64,000 nt of DNA from the NCBI GenBank assembly GCA_964546995.1, contig CAZJKO010000001.1:8504-72503 (forward strand). Reading direction: 5' to 3'. The notes below the pieces were generated by a model. The model worked only from the letters and a program-made list of their open reading frames with translations, was not told the DNA's origin and ran no database searches. The DNA is from an uncultured Muribaculaceae bacterium (GTDB taxonomy: Bacteria; Bacillota_I; Bacilli_A; RF39; UBA660). This document shows, piece by piece, positions 2,531-22,712 of this stretch (the stretch's first letter is position 1; every line of letters starts with the position of its first letter). The translations under genes were made by a program, and so were the position numbers.

Positions 2531-3430
2531 TTATTTGTCTAGTTGCATAATTTCTAATAAGCGATTTAAGTCGTTGGAATTGACAAAAGTGATTTCTAGT
2601 TTATTGCTTTTAATTCGGACTTTTGTCCCCAATTTATCACTTATTTTTTCTTCGATGTATGTATATTCATTCGTTTTTTTCGGTTTCCTGGTACGACTAG
2701 TTTGAGGAACGATTTTGTGATATTCTTCTTGAGTTGACAATTCTTCTATTTGTCGTACGTTTAATCCTTCTGTTACTACTTTTTCTGCTAATTCTTTCAC
2801 TTTGGTATCATTTTCTATTTTACTTAATACACGGGCATGACTCATCGAAATTTTATTTTCCACTAAAAGGTCTTTTACTTCTTCTGGTAAGTGAAGAAGT
2901 CCTAACATGTTCGTAATATGGCTTCTACTTTTTCCTACTCTTGTCGATAATTCTTCTTGGGTTAATCCTAAGTTTTCAATGAGTTTTTTATATGCCATTG
3001 CTTCTTCTAGTGGGCTTAAATTTTCTCTTTGCAAGTTTTCTAGTAAAGCGATTTCCATCATTTCTTCATCGGTGAAATCGCGGATGATGGCAGGTATTTT
3101 TTCCAGTCCTGCTAATTTACTTGCTTTGACACGGCGTTCTCCTGCGATGATTTCATACCCTTTGATACTTTTTTTGGCAATGATCGGTTGAAATACACCA
3201 TGTTCTTTGATCGATGATGCTAATTCCTTTAGTGCATCTTCATCGAATGTCTTACGAGGTTGGTAGGGATTACTTCTCAACTCGTCTAAGTTCAGTTCGA
3301 CAATGGCATCTTTCGGCGTGGATGTAATAATTTTTTCTTCCATTTTACTATAATCGATGGGTTCACTATTAAATAGTTCTTCGAGACCACGACCTAACGC
3401 TTTTCGTTTATTCGTTTCCATTTCGTTCAA
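2531..3430 (-). CDS. spo0J: Chromosome partitioning protein ParB/Spo0J
   Basis: 299 aa; ParB N-terminal box (QPRKTFDEDALKELASSIKEHGVFQPI; GERRVKASKLAG) and HTH; located downstream of parA. Confidence 0.9.
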   Translation of the reverse strand: MNEMETNKRKALGRGLEELFNSEPIDYSKMEEKIITSTPKDAIVELNLDELRSNPYQPRKTFDEDALKELASSIKEHGVFQPIIAKKSIKGYEIIAGERRVKASKLAGLEKIPAIIRDFTDEEMMEIALLENLQRENLSPLEEAMAYKKLIENLGLTQEELSTRVGKSRSHITNMLGLLHLPEEVKDLLVENKISMSHARVLSKIENDTKVKELAEKVVTEGLNVRQIEELSTQEEYHKIVPQTSRTRKPKKTNEYTYIEEKISDKLGTKVRIKSNKLEITFVNSNDLNRLLEIMQLDK

Positions 3431-4205
3431 TCACTTCCTTTGCTAAGTTTATGTATGCTTCGCTTCCTCTACTTTTGGGATCATATGCTAGGATTGGCTC
3501 TCCGTGTGATGGGGCTTCGGTCAAGCGAATCAATCTTGGAATTATCGTATTATAAACGCGTTCTTTAAAATACTTTCTAATATCTTCGACAACTTCGAAA
3601 CCTAAATTTGTTCTAGAATCCAACATAGTTAATAATACGCCTTCGATATCTAAATTAGGATTTAAGGTTTTTTGGGCTAACATGATACTGTTTAGTAGTT
3701 GCATAATTCCTTCTAAGGCAAAAAATTCACACTGGACTGGTATAATGACAGAATCTGATGCCGTTAAAGCGTTTGTTGTAATCAATCCTAAAGAAGGAGG
3801 ACAATCGATGATTAAAAAATCAAAGTTATCTTTGTACGGATCTAAATGTTGTTTTAATTGTGCTCCTTTGGCAAAGCCTGGTTCCGTATGACTTTTTTCT
3901 AACAATTCGATGTCGATTCCTGCTAGGTTAATCGTGCCTGGCAAAACATATAAATTTTTATATTTTGTTTTAATTATTGCTTCTTCTAGTGTACAACTAC
4001 CATTTAAAACATCGTAGGCACTTAATTCAAAATCACCTTTATTATACCCTATTCCCGTTGTGGCATTTCCTTGGGGATCTAAATCTATTAGTAGTACTTT
4101 TTTTCCTAAAACAGCTAAAGAGGCCGATAAATTGATGCTCGTTGTAGTCTTTCCTACACCACCTTTTTGATTGACTAGTGCTATGATTTTTCCCATTTTT
4201 ATCAC
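3408..4205 (-). CDS. soj: Chromosome partitioning ATPase ParA/Soj
   Basis: 265 aa; deviant Walker A KGGVGKTTT; ParA/MinD family. Confidence 0.9.
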   Translation of the reverse strand: MIKMGKIIALVNQKGGVGKTTTSINLSASLAVLGKKVLLIDLDPQGNATTGIGYNKGDFELSAYDVLNGSCTLEEAIIKTKYKNLYVLPGTINLAGIDIELLEKSHTEPGFAKGAQLKQHLDPYKDNFDFLIIDCPPSLGLITTNALTASDSVIIPVQCEFFALEGIMQLLNSIMLAQKTLNPNLDIEGVLLTMLDSRTNLGFEVVEDIRKYFKERVYNTIIPRLIRLTEAPSHGEPILAYDPKSRGSEAYINLAKEVIERNGNE

Positions 4206-4313: not shown

Positions 4314-5528
4314 TTATTTGTCTTTATCGATTTTGATTACGATTTGATATTCTTTGTCTAAATCAATTTCCTCACTATCGATCTTTAATCCATTTCTTTC
4401 TATGACAGAAACAGCTTCTCTAATTGTATTAATTGCAGATTTCATATCGAACACTAGATTGCGATTTAAACTTTTATCGATTTCGTCACTCACTTCTTTT
4501 TTTTGTAAAATTTGAGAAGGGGTAAGATTTTCTACAAAATGAGGAGAATCTTCAATGATATCAAGTGTTTCGATCGGTTCATCAAGCGATGGTTTTTCGT
4601 TTTGAATCGTAAAATTATCGAAGGTGATATCTTGCGGTGTTTCCTCTTGTATTGAATCGATGATGGGTTCTTCGAACGATGGGACAAAGCGATAACTCGG
4701 TATCTCTTCTTGCGGTTCTTGGTGTTCTTCTTTCGAATCGATTTTTAAAAGAAAATCTAAATCTGCTTTTGGTTTTTCTTCAGGAATGATGTCTTTTGAT
4801 TTCATTCTTATTTTTTCTACATCCATAATATTGGATGTATTCACTGTATCGTCCATTGCTGGAGTTGGATCTATATTTATAAATTTGTTTTCTTCTTGTT
4901 CTACTTTTTCTTCTACACCCTTATTATCGTTCATCATCTTTATTTCACTATCCAATTCCTTTACTGTCATTCGACTTGCGATGACTTTTTTCATCATTTC
5001 CGCTTGTTTTTTTGGATCTTGGATATTTAATAAGCTACGGGCATGACGTTCTGATATTTGTTCTTTCATCAGTGCTTCTTGTACTTCTTCTGACAAGGTT
5101 AAAAGTCTTAGTTTATTGGCAACTGCCGATTGACTTTTTCCCATAGTTCTAGCCAGTTTTTCTTGTGTCATTTCATCTAGTTCTAGTATTTTTTGGTATG
5201 TTTTTGCTTCTTCTAAGGCGTTTAAATCACGACGTTGGAGATTTTCTAGAAGGGCGACTTTCGAGCTTTCTTTATCGTCTAAATTACGAATAATGGCTGG
5301 TATTTTCGTCATTCCTGCTAAAGCAGATGCTTTATAACGTCGTTCTCCCGCAATGATTTCATATTTACCACCAATATTTCTTACAATGATCGGTTGGATT
5401 ACACCGTGTTCTTTGATCGATGCCGCAAGTTCGCGCAATGCTCGATCATCGAATACTTCACGTGGTTGAAAACGATTGGGAATAATATCATCTAAATATA
5501 AATATACTACTTGACTTTCTTCTTGCAT
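4314..5528 (-). CDS. noc: ParB-like nucleoid occlusion protein (Noc-like) with a long acidic C-terminal extension
   Basis: N-terminal 280 aa has a ParB box (FQPREVFDDRALRELAASIKEHGVIQPIIVR; GERRYKASALAG) in the Noc position next to rsmG; C-terminal ~120 aa are E/D/I-rich low-complexity sequence. Confidence 0.75.
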   Translation of the reverse strand: MQEESQVVYLYLDDIIPNRFQPREVFDDRALRELAASIKEHGVIQPIIVRNIGGKYEIIAGERRYKASALAGMTKIPAIIRNLDDKESSKVALLENLQRRDLNALEEAKTYQKILELDEMTQEKLARTMGKSQSAVANKLRLLTLSEEVQEALMKEQISERHARSLLNIQDPKKQAEMMKKVIASRMTVKELDSEIKMMNDNKGVEEKVEQEENKFINIDPTPAMDDTVNTSNIMDVEKIRMKSKDIIPEEKPKADLDFLLKIDSKEEHQEPQEEIPSYRFVPSFEEPIIDSIQEETPQDITFDNFTIQNEKPSLDEPIETLDIIEDSPHFVENLTPSQILQKKEVSDEIDKSLNRNLVFDMKSAINTIREAVSVIERNGLKIDSEEIDLDKEYQIVIKIDKDK

Positions 5529-11754: not shown

Positions 11755-11950
11755 TTTTATTTTTTCCACATTATTAACAGACCTGTTTATATCTTTTTTC
11801 ACCATGTTGATAATTTTTTTTGCCTCTTGTGGAAAAAATGGGAATTTCTTTTTTATATAACTATTTGGTTTGTGGATAAGATTGTGGAAATCATGTGGAT
11901 AATCTTTTTTTTCTATTTTTAGTCTTGCTATTCATGTGGAAAATAGATAC
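11755..11950. promoter_or_regulatory. oriC DnaA-box cluster upstream of dnaA (incA/incB-like)
   Basis: Perfect TGTGGATAA at ~11871-11879 and ~11894-11902; one-mismatch boxes (TGTGGAAAA / TTTTCCACA) at ~11761, ~11828, ~11884, ~11935; the gene-strand switch occurs here. Confidence 0.8.
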
Positions 11951-12020
11951 AATAATGGTGACTTTGATAATTCTATTCGCTTGTTAGTTATTAGCTTACA
12001 AGTACAGGGGAAGTGGTAGG

Positions 12021-13409
12021 ATGGATGTCGTCGTTTTATGGACGAATTTTTTAAATCAAATAAAAACGGAAATTACATCGCTTTCTTTTGAGACTTGGTT
12101 TAAGGAAACGGAACTTTATGAACTGAAAGATGGGAAAGCAAAAGTCATTGTACCAATGCCTATACATAAAAAGCATTTGCGTGACAATTATCAGGAGTTA
12201 ATGATTGAAACTCTCAATCATGTTACTGGTACAAACTTTGAAATAGAGTACTTTTTAAAAGATGAAATCGAAGAAGTGGAATCTAATTCTTTAGAGATCA
12301 GTGATGGAGTAGGGAAGATGGTTATTTCTAGTGGAGTTCCTTACAATAATCCAATCGATTCTAATCTTAATAAAAATTATAATTTTGATAATTTTATTGT
12401 TGGAAATAGTAATAAGTTTGCTCATGCGGCAGCTTTATCTGTCGCCGAAAATCCTGGAAAAATGTATAATCCGTTATTTATTTATGGCAATAGTGGGCTA
12501 GGGAAGACACATCTTATGCATGCGATCGGGAATTATATCATACAAACTTCCAATAAAAAAGTCCTCTATGTTACGAGTGATCAATTTATTCAAGATTTCA
12601 TTGGTATTAATAAGAAAGATTCATCTGGTACGAATTTTAATTATGTCGAGTTTTTCAAAAATAAATATCGCAATGTCGATGTTCTCATCATTGACGATAT
12701 TCAATTCTTAGGAGGAGCAACACAGACACAGCAAGAGTTTTTTCATACCTTCAATACACTATATAGTGATAGTAAACAGATCATTATTTCTTCAGATCGA
12801 TCTCCTGATGATTTAAAATTGTTGGAAGACCGTCTTCGAACTCGGTTCTGTTGGGGATTAACTGTCGATATCTTTCCTCCTGACTTTTCCCTTCGAGTCG
12901 CTATTCTAAAGAAAAAAATATCCGCAGGATCTGTGGAAAAAAATATTCCTGAAGATGTCATCGAATACATTGCTTCCAACATGGGAAGTGACGTAAGACA
13001 GCTTGAAGGGTCCATTACGAGACTGGTCGCTTATTCTACTATTATGGGTGGTGCTTCGATCACAGTAGAACTTGCCATTGAAGCATTAAAAGACTATATT
13101 AACAAAGGAATCAGCGAGAAAGATGATGTAAGACGGATTCAAAAAGTCGTCAGTGAATACTTTCAAATTTCTATGGAAGATATTCGGTCAAAAAAGAGAA
13201 GTAGCAATATCGCTTTTCCAAGGCAAATTGCTATGTACCTTTGTCGCAAAATGACAAACGAATCCTTTCCTAAAATAGGAACAGAATTTGGTGGAAAAGA
13301 TCATTCTACAGTCATGCATTCTGTCGATAAAATAGAAAAAGAAATTGCTACCAATAAAGAACTTTTTAATATTATCGAAAAATTGAAGAAGGATATTGGG
13401 GGAGGGTAG
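12021..13409 (+). CDS. dnaA: Chromosomal replication initiator protein DnaA
   Basis: 462 aa; AAA+ Walker A GNSGLGKTHL; C-terminal DnaA-box-binding helix. Confidence 0.95.
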   Translation: MDVVVLWTNFLNQIKTEITSLSFETWFKETELYELKDGKAKVIVPMPIHKKHLRDNYQELMIETLNHVTGTNFEIEYFLKDEIEEVESNSLEISDGVGKMVISSGVPYNNPIDSNLNKNYNFDNFIVGNSNKFAHAAALSVAENPGKMYNPLFIYGNSGLGKTHLMHAIGNYIIQTSNKKVLYVTSDQFIQDFIGINKKDSSGTNFNYVEFFKNKYRNVDVLIIDDIQFLGGATQTQQEFFHTFNTLYSDSKQIIISSDRSPDDLKLLEDRLRTRFCWGLTVDIFPPDFSLRVAILKKKISAGSVEKNIPEDVIEYIASNMGSDVRQLEGSITRLVAYSTIMGGASITVELAIEALKDYINKGISEKDDVRRIQKVVSEYFQISMEDIRSKKRSSNIAFPRQIAMYLCRKMTNESFPKIGTEFGGKDHSTVMHSVDKIEKEIATNKELFNIIEKLKKDIGGG

Positions 13410-13548
13410 TTGTGGATTTTCATTCATTTTTCCACAACTTATCCACAAGAAAAAAAAGATAAAACTACTTGTTTATCACGGAAAAAAAGAATTATCCACA
13501 TTTTCCACAGTAATAATATAAAAACATATATAAGAAAGAAGGAATATT
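13410..13548. promoter_or_regulatory. oriC second DnaA-box cluster plus AT-rich unwinding element between dnaA and dnaN
   Basis: Perfect TTATCCACA at ~13439-13447 and ~13492-13500; TTTTCCACA at ~13428 and ~13501; a nearly pure A/T stretch 13511-13534 follows. Confidence 0.75.
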
Positions 13549-14813: not shown

Positions 14814-15260
14814 ATGGATTGTTATGAAATCAATGAAGATACGCTTGCCATTTTGCCTGATGGTCATTATACTTCAAAGGTTATTGAACAAGATACTACT
14901 TATTTGATTCCTAGAAATCCTTATCGTATTATGGATGATAGTTGTCAGTATTTTGGAAGTAGTTTTGATGGAAGAGAAAAAGGAAGTAAGAGTATTCTTG
15001 GTTCTAGTTATAAGGTTCCCATTATCGTTGAAGAAATACGAGGACTTATCTTTTTTCCAACTGTTTCTAGAACCAAAGAAGAGTGTTGTTGGATTGGATT
15101 AAATCACGTAAAATCCTATGAAAAAAGTGGTACTAATACGAAAATTATTTTTCATAATAACAATTCTATTGTTGTTCCAGTATCGTATCAGTCTTTTCAA
15201 AATCAACTATTTCGGGCGACAAGATTAGAATCTGTTATAAAAAAGAGAGTAAATAAGTAA
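14814..15260 (+). CDS. comK: ComK-family competence transcription factor homolog (short form)
   Basis: Aligns with B. subtilis ComK: CYEINEDTLAILP / SYEVNGATIAVLP, DDSCQYFGSS / DRSCRFFGSS, IFFPTVS / IFLFPTLS, CCWIGLNHV / CGWISHVHV, PVSYQSFQNQLFR / PISYNSFENQVYR. Confidence 0.75.
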   Translation: MDCYEINEDTLAILPDGHYTSKVIEQDTTYLIPRNPYRIMDDSCQYFGSSFDGREKGSKSILGSSYKVPIIVEEIRGLIFFPTVSRTKEECCWIGLNHVKSYEKSGTNTKIIFHNNNSIVVPVSYQSFQNQLFRATRLESVIKKRVNK

Positions 15261-15374: not shown

Positions 15375-18432
<3,058 letters not shown>

Positions 18433-18447
18433 TGGGGGTGATGTAAT

Positions 18448-20928
18448 ATGGAAAATATTGAAAATATGGAAAGTAAACTAATTAATGTTAATATTTCGGA
18501 TAAAATGCAATCGGCTTTTCTAGATTATTCGATGAGTGTTATTGTTGCTCGTGCTTTGCCTGATGTTCGCGATGGTTTGAAACCTGTTCATCGACGCATT
18601 TTATACACGATGTTGGAGGAAGGCTTTACGCCTGATAAAAAGTATGTTAAGAGTGCCAATACAGTCGGAAATGTACTAGCACACTATCATCCACATGGGG
18701 ATACTGCTGTCTACGATACGATGGTGCGTATGGCACAGGACTTTAATTATCGTTTTCCACTTGTCGATGGTCACGGTAACTTTGGTTCGATTGATGGTTA
18801 TTCAGCGGCAGCACAGCGTTATACGGAAGCAAAATTATCAAAGATTTCGATGGAGCTTTTAAAAGATCTCAATAAAAATACGGTCGATTTTGTGGATAAC
18901 TACGATGGAGAACGAAAAGAACCATCTGTTTTACCATCTCGATTTCCCAACATTTTAGTCAATGGTACGATGGGTATTGCTGTTGGTATGGCTACCAATA
19001 TTCCTCCTCATAATTTAGGTGAAGTGATCAATGGTTGTATTGCAAAGATTGATAATCCACTTATTACTACAGAAGAATTGATGGAGTATATTAAAGGTCC
19101 TGATTTTCCAACTGGTGGTATTATTTTAGGAAATAGTGGTATTCGTAAAGCTTATGAGACGGGTAAAGGTGTTGTTGTTATTCGGGCTAAGGCTTATATT
19201 GAAGAGCATAATAATCGTCAGAGAATTGTCATTACCGAAATTCCTTATCAAGTGAATAAGACATCTCTTATAACGAAGATCGCTGATTTGGTACGAAATA
19301 AGCAAATAGAGGGTGTTTCTGATCTTCGTGATGAAACAGACCTTAAAGGTATTAAAATCGTTGTAGAGGTCAAAAAAGAGGCAAATGCGAACGTTGTATT
19401 GAATAATTTATATAAATATACGCAACTACAAGTTTCCTATGGAATTAATCTTTTAGCACTCGATGATGGACAACCTAAGGTATTGACTTTAAATGAAATT
19501 TTAGAGAAATATCTTAATCATCAAAAGATGGTTATTATCCGAAGAACGCAATTTGATTTAGATAAAGCAGAGCGACGCGCCCATATTTTGGAAGGATTGA
19601 AGATTGCTCTTGATCATATTGATGCCATCATTGATTTGATTAAAAACTCGAAAACAGATGAAGAAGCTGCTAATGGATTGATGAATCAATATCATTTGAG
19701 TGAATCTCAGGCTCAAGCTATTTTGGAGATGAAACTTCGTCGTTTGACTGGTTTAGAGAAGGAAAAAATTGAATCTGAACTTGCTGAACTTATGAAGACG
19801 ATTGAAGATTTACGTGCTATTCTTGCTAGTGATGAACGTATTTTAGGTATTATTAAGGACGAGATGATTGAAATTCGGGACAAGTATTCGGATGAGCGAA
19901 GGACGGCTATCGATATGACGGCGATCGAATATATTGAAGATGAGTCGTTAATTCCTGTGGAAAACATTGTTATTACTCTTACCAATAAAGGGTATATTAA
20001 GCGAGTTCCTGTGGATACTTATAAATCACAAAATCGTGGAGGAGTCGGCGTTAAAGGGATGACGACGAATGAGGAAGACTTTGTGGAACATTTGGTTTCT
20101 ATGGAAACTCACGATTATGTGTTATTTTTCTCTAATAAGGGTAGAGTATATCGTATTAAGGGTTACGAAATTCCAGAATATGGAAGACAATCTAAGGGTC
20201 TACCTATTGTTAATCTATTGTCTTTAGATAAAGATGAATATGTTAATTCGTTGATTTGTATTCGTGCGGATGATGAAGCTAAGTATTTATTGTTTGTAAC
20301 AAAAGGTGGACTTGTGAAACGTACAGATATTAGTGAATTTGATAATATTCGTACGAGTGGTAAGATTGCAATTATTCTTAAAGATGATGATGAATTGATT
20401 GCTGTTCGTAAAACAACAGGGGATAATCAGATCATTATTGGTACTAGCAGTGGTCGTATGGTTCGTTTTGAAGAAAGTGAAATAAGAGCTATGGGACGTA
20501 GTACTTCTGGAGTAAGAGGTGTCGATTTAGGAGATGCTCGCGTTGTTGGTAGTGAAGTTGTTTATGATGATCAACAAGTGTTAATTGTTACAGAAAAAGG
20601 ATATGGCAAGAAGACTTCTATTTCTGAATATCGTTTAACACATCGTGGTAGTAAAGGTGTTAAGGCATTAAACATTACTGAGAAGAATGGTAATATGGTT
20701 GCTTTGAAATGTGTTTATGGTGATGAAGATCTAATGATTATTACGGATAGTGGTATCATTATGAGGATGCCTATGGAACAAATTTCTACTTTAAAAAGAG
20801 CAACACAAGGTGTTCGTCTCATCAATTTGAAAGATCAACAAAAAGTAGCTACTGTCGCAACTCTTGCCAAAGAAGAGGAATCTTGCAATGATGAACAGAG
20901 TGTATCTATGGAAAACGAAACTGAATAA
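18448..20928 (+). CDS. gyrA: DNA gyrase subunit A
   Basis: 826 aa; QRDR region [10 protein letters not shown]; active-site Tyr region; C-terminal beta-pinwheel repeats. Confidence 0.95.
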
Positions 20929-20954
20929 AGTTACATAATATTTATAGCAAGTAT

Positions 20955-20993
20955 AGCAAGGCTAATTACAAATAATAGCCTTGCTATTTTTTT
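20955..20993 (+). terminator. Rho-independent terminator after gyrA
   Basis: Stem AGCAAGGCTA / TAGCCTTGCT (10 bp perfect) followed by T8. Confidence 0.75.
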
Positions 20994-21242
20994 GGCATAC
21001 AATTCATTCAAGTGACAAAAACTGTGGATAAAATATTTTCATAATATAAAATATTGTGTATAATTTTACTAAAGAAGTAATTTTCTATATGGTTATTGCT
21101 ATATTATTTTAAAATGTCGAGTTAAATTGGGTTTATTAAAGCGTGAATATTCTCATAAAGTTTCGTTAATTTATATTACTTTATTTTGTATTTTAAAAGT
21201 ATTCTTTTATCGTATTAGTTAATAATATAGACTGTAATTGTG

Positions 21243-21260
21243 ATGTTTCACGTGAAACAT
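21243..21260. other. parS: parS centromere-like site (perfect ATGTTTCACGTGAAACAT)
   Basis: 18-bp perfect palindrome containing the 16-bp Firmicute parS consensus TGTTNCACGTGAAACA. Confidence 0.8.
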
Positions 21261-21468
21261 CAGATATAAGTTTCCGTTTTTACTATAAATACGAGATCGA
21301 TTTATATAAATAAATTCTAATCATGTAATTTGGAAGACGAATAGCGATACTATTTATGCTAAACTTGAAGTTGCATAACTGAATATGACTTTTATAAATA
21401 GCAATTTATATAATTATCAATCTTTTATCTAACGATCGGTTTTTTATGAGAAGTTAAAAGATATCATA

Positions 21469-21486
21469 ATGTTTCACGTGAAACAT
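21469..21486. other. parS: parS centromere-like site (perfect ATGTTTCACGTGAAACAT)
   Basis: Identical 18-bp palindrome, second copy. Confidence 0.8.
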
Positions 21487-21617
21487 TATATGAATATAAT
21501 TCTGAATGTTCGTTTGAACTATATTGTACTTCAAACTTAACTTCATATTTTTATGAAAAGAGTTTGTTTTTTAAAACTGATAGATTCATAATAATGCGAT
21601 ATGTAAATTCTTATACA

Positions 21618-21635
21618 ATGTTTCACGTGAAACAT
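21618..21635. other. parS: parS centromere-like site (perfect ATGTTTCACGTGAAACAT)
   Basis: Identical 18-bp palindrome, third copy. Confidence 0.8.
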
Positions 21636-21779
21636 TGTATTCTTTTTAAAACATTGATGCTTTGGCTTGTATAAAAGAGAAGTTCGTTTCATATCATATA
21701 GAACAATAATATTGGAACTGCTTAAAACAAAAAAACAAGAAAGGTGGCATGCGATTTAAAATAATCATCGTTTTCTATA

Positions 21780-21797
21780 ATGTTTCACGTGAAACAT
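21780..21797. other. parS: parS centromere-like site (perfect ATGTTTCACGTGAAACAT)
   Basis: Identical 18-bp palindrome, fourth copy; an ATGTTTCA half-site also occurs at ~21834. Confidence 0.8.
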
Positions 21798-21896
21798 TAT
21801 AGATGGTATTTATTAAATGTTGAAAGTTATGGGATGTTTCAAAGATCTAATTTTCCAAGCTTTATGTTTTTATATCGTTCTAAACATATAGAAATT

Positions 21897-21910
21897 ATTT
21901 CCCGGGAAAT
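21897..21910. promoter_or_regulatory. Perfect palindrome ATTTCCCGGGAAAT 5 bp upstream of a TATAAT hexamer (candidate operator)
   Basis: 14-bp perfect palindrome; a second, related copy lies upstream of dnaX at 22682-22697. Confidence 0.3.
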
Positions 21911-22047
21911 ATTACTATAATATTTGTACTTTTAAAAGTCTTTTTATCTGTAAAATTTTAATGTTAAAGTGTACAATTTTGATTTCGATGTTGATATTTT
22001 ATTTTTTAATTTACGTATTATGTTAAGTTGTATTGATACTAAAATAG

Positions 22048-22076: not shown

Positions 22077-22082
22077 GTTGAT

Positions 22083-22160
22083 GGTGCAATGAATGTGATC
22101 GGAACCAGGTCAGGATTGGAAGATAGCAGCCTTAACGATTTTCATTCATGTGCACCTTTC
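22083..22160 (+). ncRNA. ffs: Small (4.5S-type) signal recognition particle RNA
   Basis: Contains ACCAGGTCAGG...GGAAG..AGCAGCC, the conserved SRP RNA domain IV; closing helix GGUGCAAUGAAUG / CAUUCAUGUGCACC; U-rich tail; same neighbourhood (tadA/dnaX) as scr in Bacillus. Confidence 0.75.
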
Positions 22161-22185
22161 TTGTATATAAAGTGAGGAAATTAGT

Positions 22186-22635
22186 ATGTCTGATATTGAA
22201 TATATGAATGTTGCTTACGAGCAAGCTTTGATTGCGTATAACATGAACGAAGTGCCTGTTGGTGCAATAATTGTTTATCATGGCCAAATTATTGCGAAGG
22301 CTTATAATCAAAAAGATTCTTCTAATTGTGTTACGAACCATGCGGAAATTTTAGCGATAGAAGAGGCGAGTCGTTTTTTGAAAAATTGGCGTCTTAATGA
22401 GTGTATTATGTATGTTACACTTGAACCTTGTCCTATGTGCGCGAGTGCTATACAACAGGCTCGGATTGATACTCTTTATTATGGTGCTTCTGCTATTAAT
22501 AAGGATAATTTGGAAATTGTGGATAAAATTTTTAATAGTGTTAATGCAAATCAAAAGGTTTGTTTAAAAGCTCCTGTATTAAAGGATCAATGTACAAAGT
22601 TACTACAAGATTTTTTTTCTAAAGTAAGAAAATAG
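22186..22635 (+). CDS. tadA: tRNA-specific adenosine deaminase TadA
   Basis: 149 aa; zinc-binding motifs HAEILAI and PCPMCASAI. Confidence 0.9.
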   Translation: MSDIEYMNVAYEQALIAYNMNEVPVGAIIVYHGQIIAKAYNQKDSSNCVTNHAEILAIEEASRFLKNWRLNECIMYVTLEPCPMCASAIQQARIDTLYYGASAINKDNLEIVDKIFNSVNANQKVCLKAPVLKDQCTKLLQDFFSKVRK

Positions 22636-22659: not shown

Positions 22660-22712
22660 TGGTATAATTTTTGATAAAATTATTTCCTGGGAAATAAAAA
22701 GCGTGATATAAT
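22660..22712 (+). promoter_or_regulatory. dnaX promoter region: two extended -10 elements (TGGTATAAT, TGATATAAT) flanking the near-palindrome TATTTCCTGGGAAATA
   Basis: TGnTATAAT at ~22660-22668 and ~22704-22712; the palindrome at 22682-22697 lies between them. Confidence 0.4.

Follow-up and report, generated by a model that had tools for sequence, protein, structure and literature searches.

Chromosomal ParABS systems with several parS sites close to the replication origin are common in bacteria. Four of these sites lie near oriC in Pseudomonas aeruginosa (parS1-4) (PMC4368675, PMC7022226), Spo0J, the ParB of Bacillus subtilis, has 10 of them, and Streptococcus pneumoniae has four (PMC7022226, PMC4368675). 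Noc, another ParB-family protein, uses a different target, the Noc-binding site (NBS), whose canonical distribution is about 40-70 scattered single sites in the half to two-thirds of the chromosome closest to the origin (PMC5540599, PMC8429893); 41 loci are found in Staphylococcus aureus, and the pattern of B. subtilis is similar (PMC5540599; PMC8429893). The locus described here belongs to a 64,000-nucleotide stretch, hereafter the window, of contig CAZJKO010000001.1 (assembly GCA_964546995.1, positions 8,504 to 72,503), which corresponds to the origin region of a Bacillota chromosome with a low GC content (~33%) from an uncultured bacterium. Four identical palindromes in the spacer between gyrA and the gene of the signal recognition particle (SRP) RNA are very likely genuine chromosomal parS sites, that is, loading sites for the cytidine triphosphate (CTP)-dependent clamp ParB (Spo0J) encoded 18 kb away, which would make this spacer, 8-9 kb from oriC, the centromere of the chromosome.

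The 18-mer ATGTTTCACGTGAAACAT occurs exactly four times in the window, at positions 21243-21260, 21469-21486, 21618-21635 and 21780-21797, with start-to-start spacings of 226, 149 and 162 bp, so that the whole array fits within 555 bp. Chance was ruled out as the origin of these copies by 100 dinucleotide-preserving shuffles of the window, none of which gave a match to the 18-mer. All four copies contain the 16-bp parS consensus TGTTNCACGTGAAACA without a single mismatch. Elsewhere in the 64 kb, no further match was found to this 16-mer at up to 2 mismatches or to TGTTTCACGTGAAACA at up to 3 mismatches, and the parB gene contains no parS-like sequence even at up to 4 mismatches. The original prediction, made from the letters of the window, had announced four identical copies with these positions and spacings, a perfect consensus in each of them and no copy inside spo0J or elsewhere; the exact searches bear it out on every one of these points.

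The protein expected to recognize the sites is encoded in the same window. The parB (spo0J) gene (2531-3430, reverse strand) specifies a protein of 299 residues with ParB_N, HTH_ParB and ParB_C domains and with the GERR and ENLQR CTP motifs, whose best structural match is B. subtilis Spo0J (6sdk, 8.5e-66). It is adjacent to parA (soj; 3408-4205, reverse strand), which encodes a ParA/MinD-type ATPase of 265 residues. The choice between parS and NBS depends on positions 173, 179, 184 and 201, which read RTAG in ParB and QKKR in Noc; in parS binders, R173 is invariant, position 201 accepts G, S, T or C and positions 179 and 184 any residue, while in Noc, Q173 and R201 make NBS-specific contacts and a lysine at either 179 or 184 is sufficient (PMC7383237). 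The Noc chain of B. subtilis served to check the numbering and shows QKKR in this register. At these positions, the ParB of the window carries R, M, H and S, i.e. residues of the parS type. The parS identity that had been proposed for the repeats is thus supported by the consensus match, by the parA-parB pair, by R173 and S201 of ParB and by the proximity of the origin.

All four sites lie within a 1.15-kb non-coding gap, a single intergenic spacer as originally described. Its left border is gyrA (18448-20928, forward strand), followed by a canonical intrinsic terminator (~20953-20993, predicted at -18.4 kcal/mol), and its right border is formed by the SRP RNA (22078-22164) and tadA (22186-22635), both on the forward strand, with dnaX downstream of tadA. 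Open reading frames overlapping the parS sites do not exceed 49 residues, a 68-residue frame of the spacer overlaps the SRP RNA, and an Rfam scan of the spacer detected the SRP RNA alone; small proteins and known RNAs were therefore rejected as an explanation of the sites. A promoter function was also rejected, since a promoter scan gave 11 matches for 12.2 expected from shuffles. The origin is bipartite (11762-13509), like oriC of B. subtilis, with DnaA-box clusters (11762-11943 and 13428-13509) on either side of dnaA (12021-13409), and the GC skew changes sign near 12 kb. To its left lie gidB, a ParB-family gene of 404 codons, parA and parB. The array is located 7.7-9.5 kb from oriC, as defined by the DnaA-box clusters and the GC-skew switch, and ~17.8 kb from parB/parA, close to the ~9 kb and ~17 kb first estimated.

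Besides the parS sites, the spacer carries a perfect DnaA box, TTATCCACA, at 21023-21031 on the reverse strand, ~210 bp before the first parS copy, and a 1-mismatch box at 21055-21063. The same DnaA box is present in the corresponding spacer of a related species (L207), and in a sister species (L203) the parS flanks AAATCCACA are similar to DnaA boxes.

The perfect identity of the four copies had been attributed to either homogenisation or strong selection. Tandem Repeats Finder (TRF) detected no tandem repeat in the inter-site DNA of the array, and alignment of the four units shows that conservation is limited to the 18-mer, the inter-site segments being without similarity to each other. A recent tandem duplication or a homogenised repeat unit was therefore rejected for the window. 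Because the inter-site DNA is unrelated, the identity of the copies is better explained by selection maintaining each site individually than by recent duplication; the selective half of the initial proposal is thus retained and the other half, for want of any repeat unit, abandoned. A strain (L201) that is 99.5% identical over 16 kb shows 19 differences in the 1257-bp spacer and none in any parS or NBS, which supports selection in a merely suggestive way, as only ~1.3 differences would be expected in the sites by chance.

The original prediction had also called for a comparison of the gyrA-tadA spacers of relatives, and this comparison turned out in its favour. Site scans covered origin-proximal DNA, i.e. 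the 64 kb of this genome and ~20 kb per relative. A first set of relatives was chosen through GyrA alone, without reference to the sites; the ten closest are uncultured Bacilli, including 'Ca. Onthousia', with 59-70% GyrA identity. Nine of these ten genomes carry parS-like sites directly after gyrA, in up to 9 copies, and in eight of the nine the cluster also includes NBS. In all nine closest GTDB relatives of this set, the parS cluster lies in the gyrA-tadA gap. None of 70 more distant GyrA loci has more than two parS-like sites. Three further species, chosen through DnaN alone, display the same gene order as the window from parA to dnaX, a long Noc-like gene is present in all of them, and their gyrA-tadA gap holds 2-4 parS: four perfect sites in the sister species L203 (92% DnaN identity), four perfect sites in L205 (77%) and two to three in L207, accompanied in the gap by 5, 0 and 2 NBS, respectively. 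In the window, L203 and L205, the cluster consists of four perfect parS in unique DNA. Judging from these genomes, the parS cluster in the gyrA-tadA gap is a conserved feature of a clade of uncultured Bacilli from gut and rumen with a low GC content ('Ca. Onthousia' and its relatives).

Like the chromosomal ParABS systems of B. subtilis, P. aeruginosa and S. pneumoniae, the window combines the same 16-bp consensus, ParA and ParB genes near oriC, more than one site in the origin domain and a ParB with GERR, ENLQR and R173. It differs from them in that its four sites are grouped in 555 bp of one non-coding spacer with none in parB, and in that all copies are perfect and included in longer palindromes. 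Furthermore, the gyrA-tadA position is fixed in the clade, where the cluster is often expanded to tandem arrays. The contrast initially drawn with the dispersed sites of B. subtilis overstated the novelty of the array, since the presence of several parS near oriC is usual in many bacteria (PMC4368675, PMC7022226). By itself, a parS cluster near oriC is of a known kind, and this one is an ordinary but unusually clean centromere; the unusual part is its association with NBS and with a Noc-like paralog.

Among the alternatives, the one that survives best accepts the sites as real parS and regards the array as a locally dense patch rather than the dominant centromere, equally good sites being located elsewhere, as in B. 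subtilis. The scan of this genome spans 64 kb, and in B. subtilis and other bacteria 4-10 or more sites are spread across the region near the origin (PMC7022226), two points that speak for such a distribution. However, around oriC no other site was detected at up to 3 mismatches over these 64 kb, including in parB, where many species carry one; only four parS are found outside the main cluster in 847 kb from 129 related loci, and the position of the cluster is conserved across the clade. A scattered set of sites is thus improbable.

The second alternative stems from the sequences that surround the sites. Each parS copy of the window is the core of a longer perfect palindrome: 22 bp for copy 1 (21241-21262), 24 bp for copy 2 (21466-21489), 28 bp for copy 3 (21613-21640, followed by TCTTTTT) and 30 bp for copy 4 (21774-21803). 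The flanks differ between copies and are nevertheless complementary within each copy; by our own calculation, sixteen matched flank pairs would arise with a probability of roughly 1e-8 if each position has a 0.31 chance of matching. The tendency is clade-wide, since flank pairs 2-5 of parS are complementary above the expectation from base frequencies (e.g. 148 observed for 103 expected at pair 3), whereas the flanks of NBS show no such excess across the clade. In L203, within 17640-18530, 32-bp palindromes (ATCCACAATG...CATTGTGGAT) lie between A- and T-runs. More generally in the clade, a T-run is present on at least one side of 50% of the extended-palindrome parS, versus 22% of the short ones and 19% of random positions. 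The window palindromes are predicted to form RNA hairpins of -9 to -15 kcal/mol, with z-scores near -5 for copies 3 and 4, and two of the four copies were flagged as terminator-like.

These features would be expected if the palindromes acted mainly as RNA, forming intrinsic-terminator or insulator hairpins in the spacer, with the parS match being secondary. Such a main role is nonetheless unlikely, and somewhat more so than scattered sites. The canonical gyrA terminator already lies upstream of the array, and a real U-tract follows copy 3 only. Across the clade, 69% of the parS extend only 0-2 bp past the 16-mer, and many are asymmetric (TGTTTCACGTGGAACA) and would mispair as a hairpin. In addition, the clade-invariant part is exactly the 16-18 bp recognized by ParB, and a terminator has no need of a parS match at every base in hundreds of sites. 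The extended palindromes therefore do not displace the parS reading, which stands because the stems are weak, a clear U-tract is limited to copy 3, gyrA is already equipped with a terminator and asymmetric sites are numerous in the clade. Instead, they suggest that hairpins of RNA or DNA play an additional role, or that template-switch mutation has perfected the palindromes; a terminator function would be at best such an added role, for example shielding the loading sites from read-through.

A third idea, that the repeats are operators of an unrelated palindrome-binding regulator of SRP RNA/tadA-dnaX or small mobile or repetitive extragenic palindromic (REP)-like remnants, can appeal to the position of the sites upstream of SRP RNA and tadA, to the typical operator shape of a palindromic 18-mer and to promoter-like hexamers that overlap some sites (no more often than in shuffles), but is very hard to credit given the perfect match to a well-defined consensus, with the gene of the cognate protein close by, the confinement of the sites to this spacer without flanking repeat structure or target duplications, the promoter scan at chance level and the copy number of relatives, which ranges from 2 to 9 or more with tandem expansion, unexpected for an operator.

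Neither these extended palindromes nor the NBS and the Noc-like paralog were covered in the original prediction. The spacer of the window carries one perfect 16-bp NBS, TATTTCCCGGGAAATA, at 21896-21911, 99 bp after parS copy 4 (for the NBS sequence, see PMC7383237, PMC8429893). A second copy with 1 mismatch, TATTTCCTGGGAAATA, is found at 22681-22696 in the tadA-dnaX spacer, 0.8 kb beyond the perfect one, and the tadA-dnaX spacer of two related species also includes a perfect NBS (L203, position 19235; L205, position 18964). Even with up to 6 mismatches allowed, no decayed NBS was found between the parS copies of the window, which thus does not represent a one-to-one parS/NBS array in decay.

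The cognate protein of the NBS found in the spacer is most likely a 404-residue ParB paralog ('NocL') encoded at 4314-5528 on the reverse strand, in the noc position between gidB and parA. Its sequence reads Q173, K179, T184 and R201, i.e. Noc-type residues, and keeps the CTP motifs. Among solved structures, it matches Noc (7nfu, 1e-60; 7ol9, 3.8e-55) better than Spo0J (1.1e-49). Of its best 120 database homologs, 118, i.e. all those that could be parsed, have Q-K-x-R at the specificity positions. Like the Noc-NBS systems of B. subtilis and S. aureus, the window thus associates an identical 16-bp NBS with a paralog placed in a gidB-noc-parA-parB order that carries Q173, K179, R201, the CTP motifs and a Noc-type C-terminal domain. 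The differences concern both the sites and the protein. Instead of being dispersed, the NBS of the window and its relatives are concentrated, within the origin-proximal DNA scanned, in the centromere spacer, where they often alternate with parS. As for the protein, it is devoid of the N-terminal amphipathic helix and includes an acidic linker of 100-250 residues.

The N-terminal difference affects a functionally important segment, since nucleoid occlusion in B. subtilis depends on helix α1 of Noc, a membrane-targeting sequence of 10 residues (PMC8429893). Alignment of the Noc-like protein begins at residue 23 of Geobacillus Noc and at residue 29 of B. subtilis Noc; its start lies ~22 residues later than that of canonical Noc and only 44 nt from the gidB stop codon, and both helix α1 and helix α2 are lacking. 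The 120 best homologs, which range from 359 to 519 residues, all have a short N-terminus with 14-19 residues before PNRFQPR. The match to the NCBIfam model TIGR04285 (nucleoid_noc) is split into two stretches by the insertion of the acidic linker (~150 residues in this protein), the second stretch corresponding to the Noc-type C-terminal domain. The linker (residues about 200-355) varies in length and includes conserved short motifs, EKPxADLDSLL, PPKFI/PRFI and F-K/R-F-F/I/V. The last of them resembles FSRFF in the membrane helix of canonical Noc, and it could be a motif for membrane or partner contact that has changed place. Globally, the 404-residue paralog is like Noc in its predicted site recognition and is not classed as a canonical nucleoid occlusion protein.

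The association of the two kinds of sites goes much further in relatives than in the window. In L001-L006, parS strictly alternates with NBS, the tandem units being 76 or about 127 bp long, and L203 has 4 parS and 5 NBS interleaved in non-repeated DNA. A metagenome scan for pairs of parS and NBS cores 14-44 nt apart, whose set is thus selected for adjacency, returned at least 120 contigs, most of them with a GC content of 19-35%. According to tblastn searches with window proteins, nearly all the listed contigs have the order gyrA-[cluster]-tadA-dnaX-ebfC-recR. In different contigs, tandem periods of ~61, 62, 72, 76, 82, 105 and 127 bp were found, each unit consisting of one parS and one NBS. 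When 129 loci are considered at up to 1 mismatch, the main cluster totals 367 parS and 342 NBS, numbers that overstate independent events as tandem copies are not independent, for 27 NBS (about 1 per 31 kb of origin-proximal DNA) and the four parS mentioned above outside it in 847 kb.

Several observations accompany these arrays. L003 (19837), L004 (21296), L006 (19800) and L010 (20425) each carry one perfect NBS located ~7 kb downstream of their array, which suggests that some positionally conserved dispersed NBS exist besides the centromere cluster. Contig L167, with a GC content of 49% and thus from a different, higher-GC organism, carries three parS and one NBS at 1553-2320 between a ParB-like gene and parA-parB; among the matches listed, it is the sole placeable metagenome contig outside the gyrA-tadA context. 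Lastly, many assemblies end inside the tandem arrays (contig ends of L001, L002, L005 and L008, as well as L087, L092, L095, L176 and L200), so that true array lengths are underestimated.

An analogue of such iterated sites is found on a plasmid: sopC of the F plasmid consists of 12 tandem 43-bp repeats. Similarly, L001-L006, L087, L091, L092, L105, L155, L176 and L200 have short head-to-tail units that each include a binding site. These arrays differ from sopC in that each unit carries sites for two different ParB-family proteins and in that the element is chromosomal. The array of the window, for its part, is not a tandem repeat and therefore not a tandem-iterated centromere. A literature search of incomplete coverage found no account of arrays that combine parS with NBS, nor of Noc homologs that lack the N-terminal helix.

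The analysis shows directly the sequences and the residues that set specificity, together with synteny and conservation; binding, the loading and spreading of clamps, the recruitment of SMC and any cross-talk of the two proteins are what we infer. In the favoured reading, i.e. a parS centromere in the gyrA-SRP RNA spacer, ParB dimers would bind each parS, close on the DNA upon CTP binding and slide into the flanks. The four sites within such a short distance would multiply the rate of ParB loading, and the outcome would be a single dense ParB complex for ParA-driven segregation of the origin. By analogy with B. subtilis and other bacteria, SMC would probably be loaded at this complex (PMC7022226). 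For the Noc-like paralog, the neighbouring NBS would most likely be the nucleation point, from which it would spread over the DNA covered by ParB.

A more ambitious proposal is a two-clamp centromere, in which a single locus near the origin, with its interleaved sites, would load both ParB and a Noc paralog devoid of a membrane helix. On this view, the Noc-like protein would be a resident part of the partition complex and not an occlusion factor acting across the genome, and partners from division, replication or the membrane could be brought to the segregating origin by its linker motifs (ADLDSLL, PPKFI, F-K/R-F-F). We hold this proposal as tentative only and consider it rather doubtful as a whole. 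It follows the logic of MipZ, a division inhibitor of Caulobacter that is present on the centromere complex; this ParA-like ATPase reaches the complex through protein contact with ParB. The analogy is functional only: in both cases, a second factor with a possible role in division or the cell cycle would be concentrated at the segregating origin by means of the centromere, whereas the second factor considered here is a ParB-family clamp with its own predicted DNA sites. By the same analogy, the Noc-like protein could be a centromere-resident adaptor for the control of division or replication; Noc of S. aureus affects replication initiation (PMC5540599).

A number of points weigh against these readings. 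As regards the centromere itself, the binding of ParB to the window sites is predicted on the basis of sequence for this uncultured clade, and further parS may lie beyond the scanned 64 kb and ~20 kb per relative. As regards its association with Noc, the NBS part of the window is minimal, with one perfect and one near-perfect site, and L205 has none inside the gap; co-location of NBS with the parS cluster thus appears frequent and not obligatory, i.e. common, not universal. The counts suffer from the dependence of tandem copies, and the metagenome loci were selected for parS-NBS adjacency. Finally, the Noc-like protein has T and not K at position 184, and it scores 307 bits on TIGR04285, 8 bits under the cut-off of 315, for 239 bits obtained by the ParB of the same genome.

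Two other features of the window deserve mention. A gene of the ComK family (PF06338, 2e-43) is located at 14814-15260 on the forward strand, between dnaN and recF. It occupies the same position in L001-L008, L010, L203, L205, L207 and many metagenome loci, while the more distant L009 and L011-L017 are devoid of it; it may be a marker of the clade or hint at a competence regulation tied to the origin region. Away from the origin, a T-box leader (Rfam RF00230, 115 bits) lies at 34138-34338 on the forward strand, upstream of an open reading frame of 541 codons (34312-35937).

The locus also has practical consequences. The parS/NBS arrays break many metagenome assemblies, which makes the locus a systematic assembly break point in the clade. 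Conversely, the spacers are compact natural parS and NBS cassettes for DNA-labelling tools, which already use ParB-parS and Noc-NBS (PMC11109969). For the biology of the clade, the main point is that, beside oriC, sites for two diverged CTP clamps of the ParB family are found together in one short stretch of DNA. This clade-wide arrangement raises the question of whether two orthogonal sliding clamps loaded on one track pass, block or assist each other, and that of the role of a Noc protein without a membrane anchor. More largely, it raises the question of how the segregation of the origin is coupled to division or to replication initiation in small-genome gut Bacilli.

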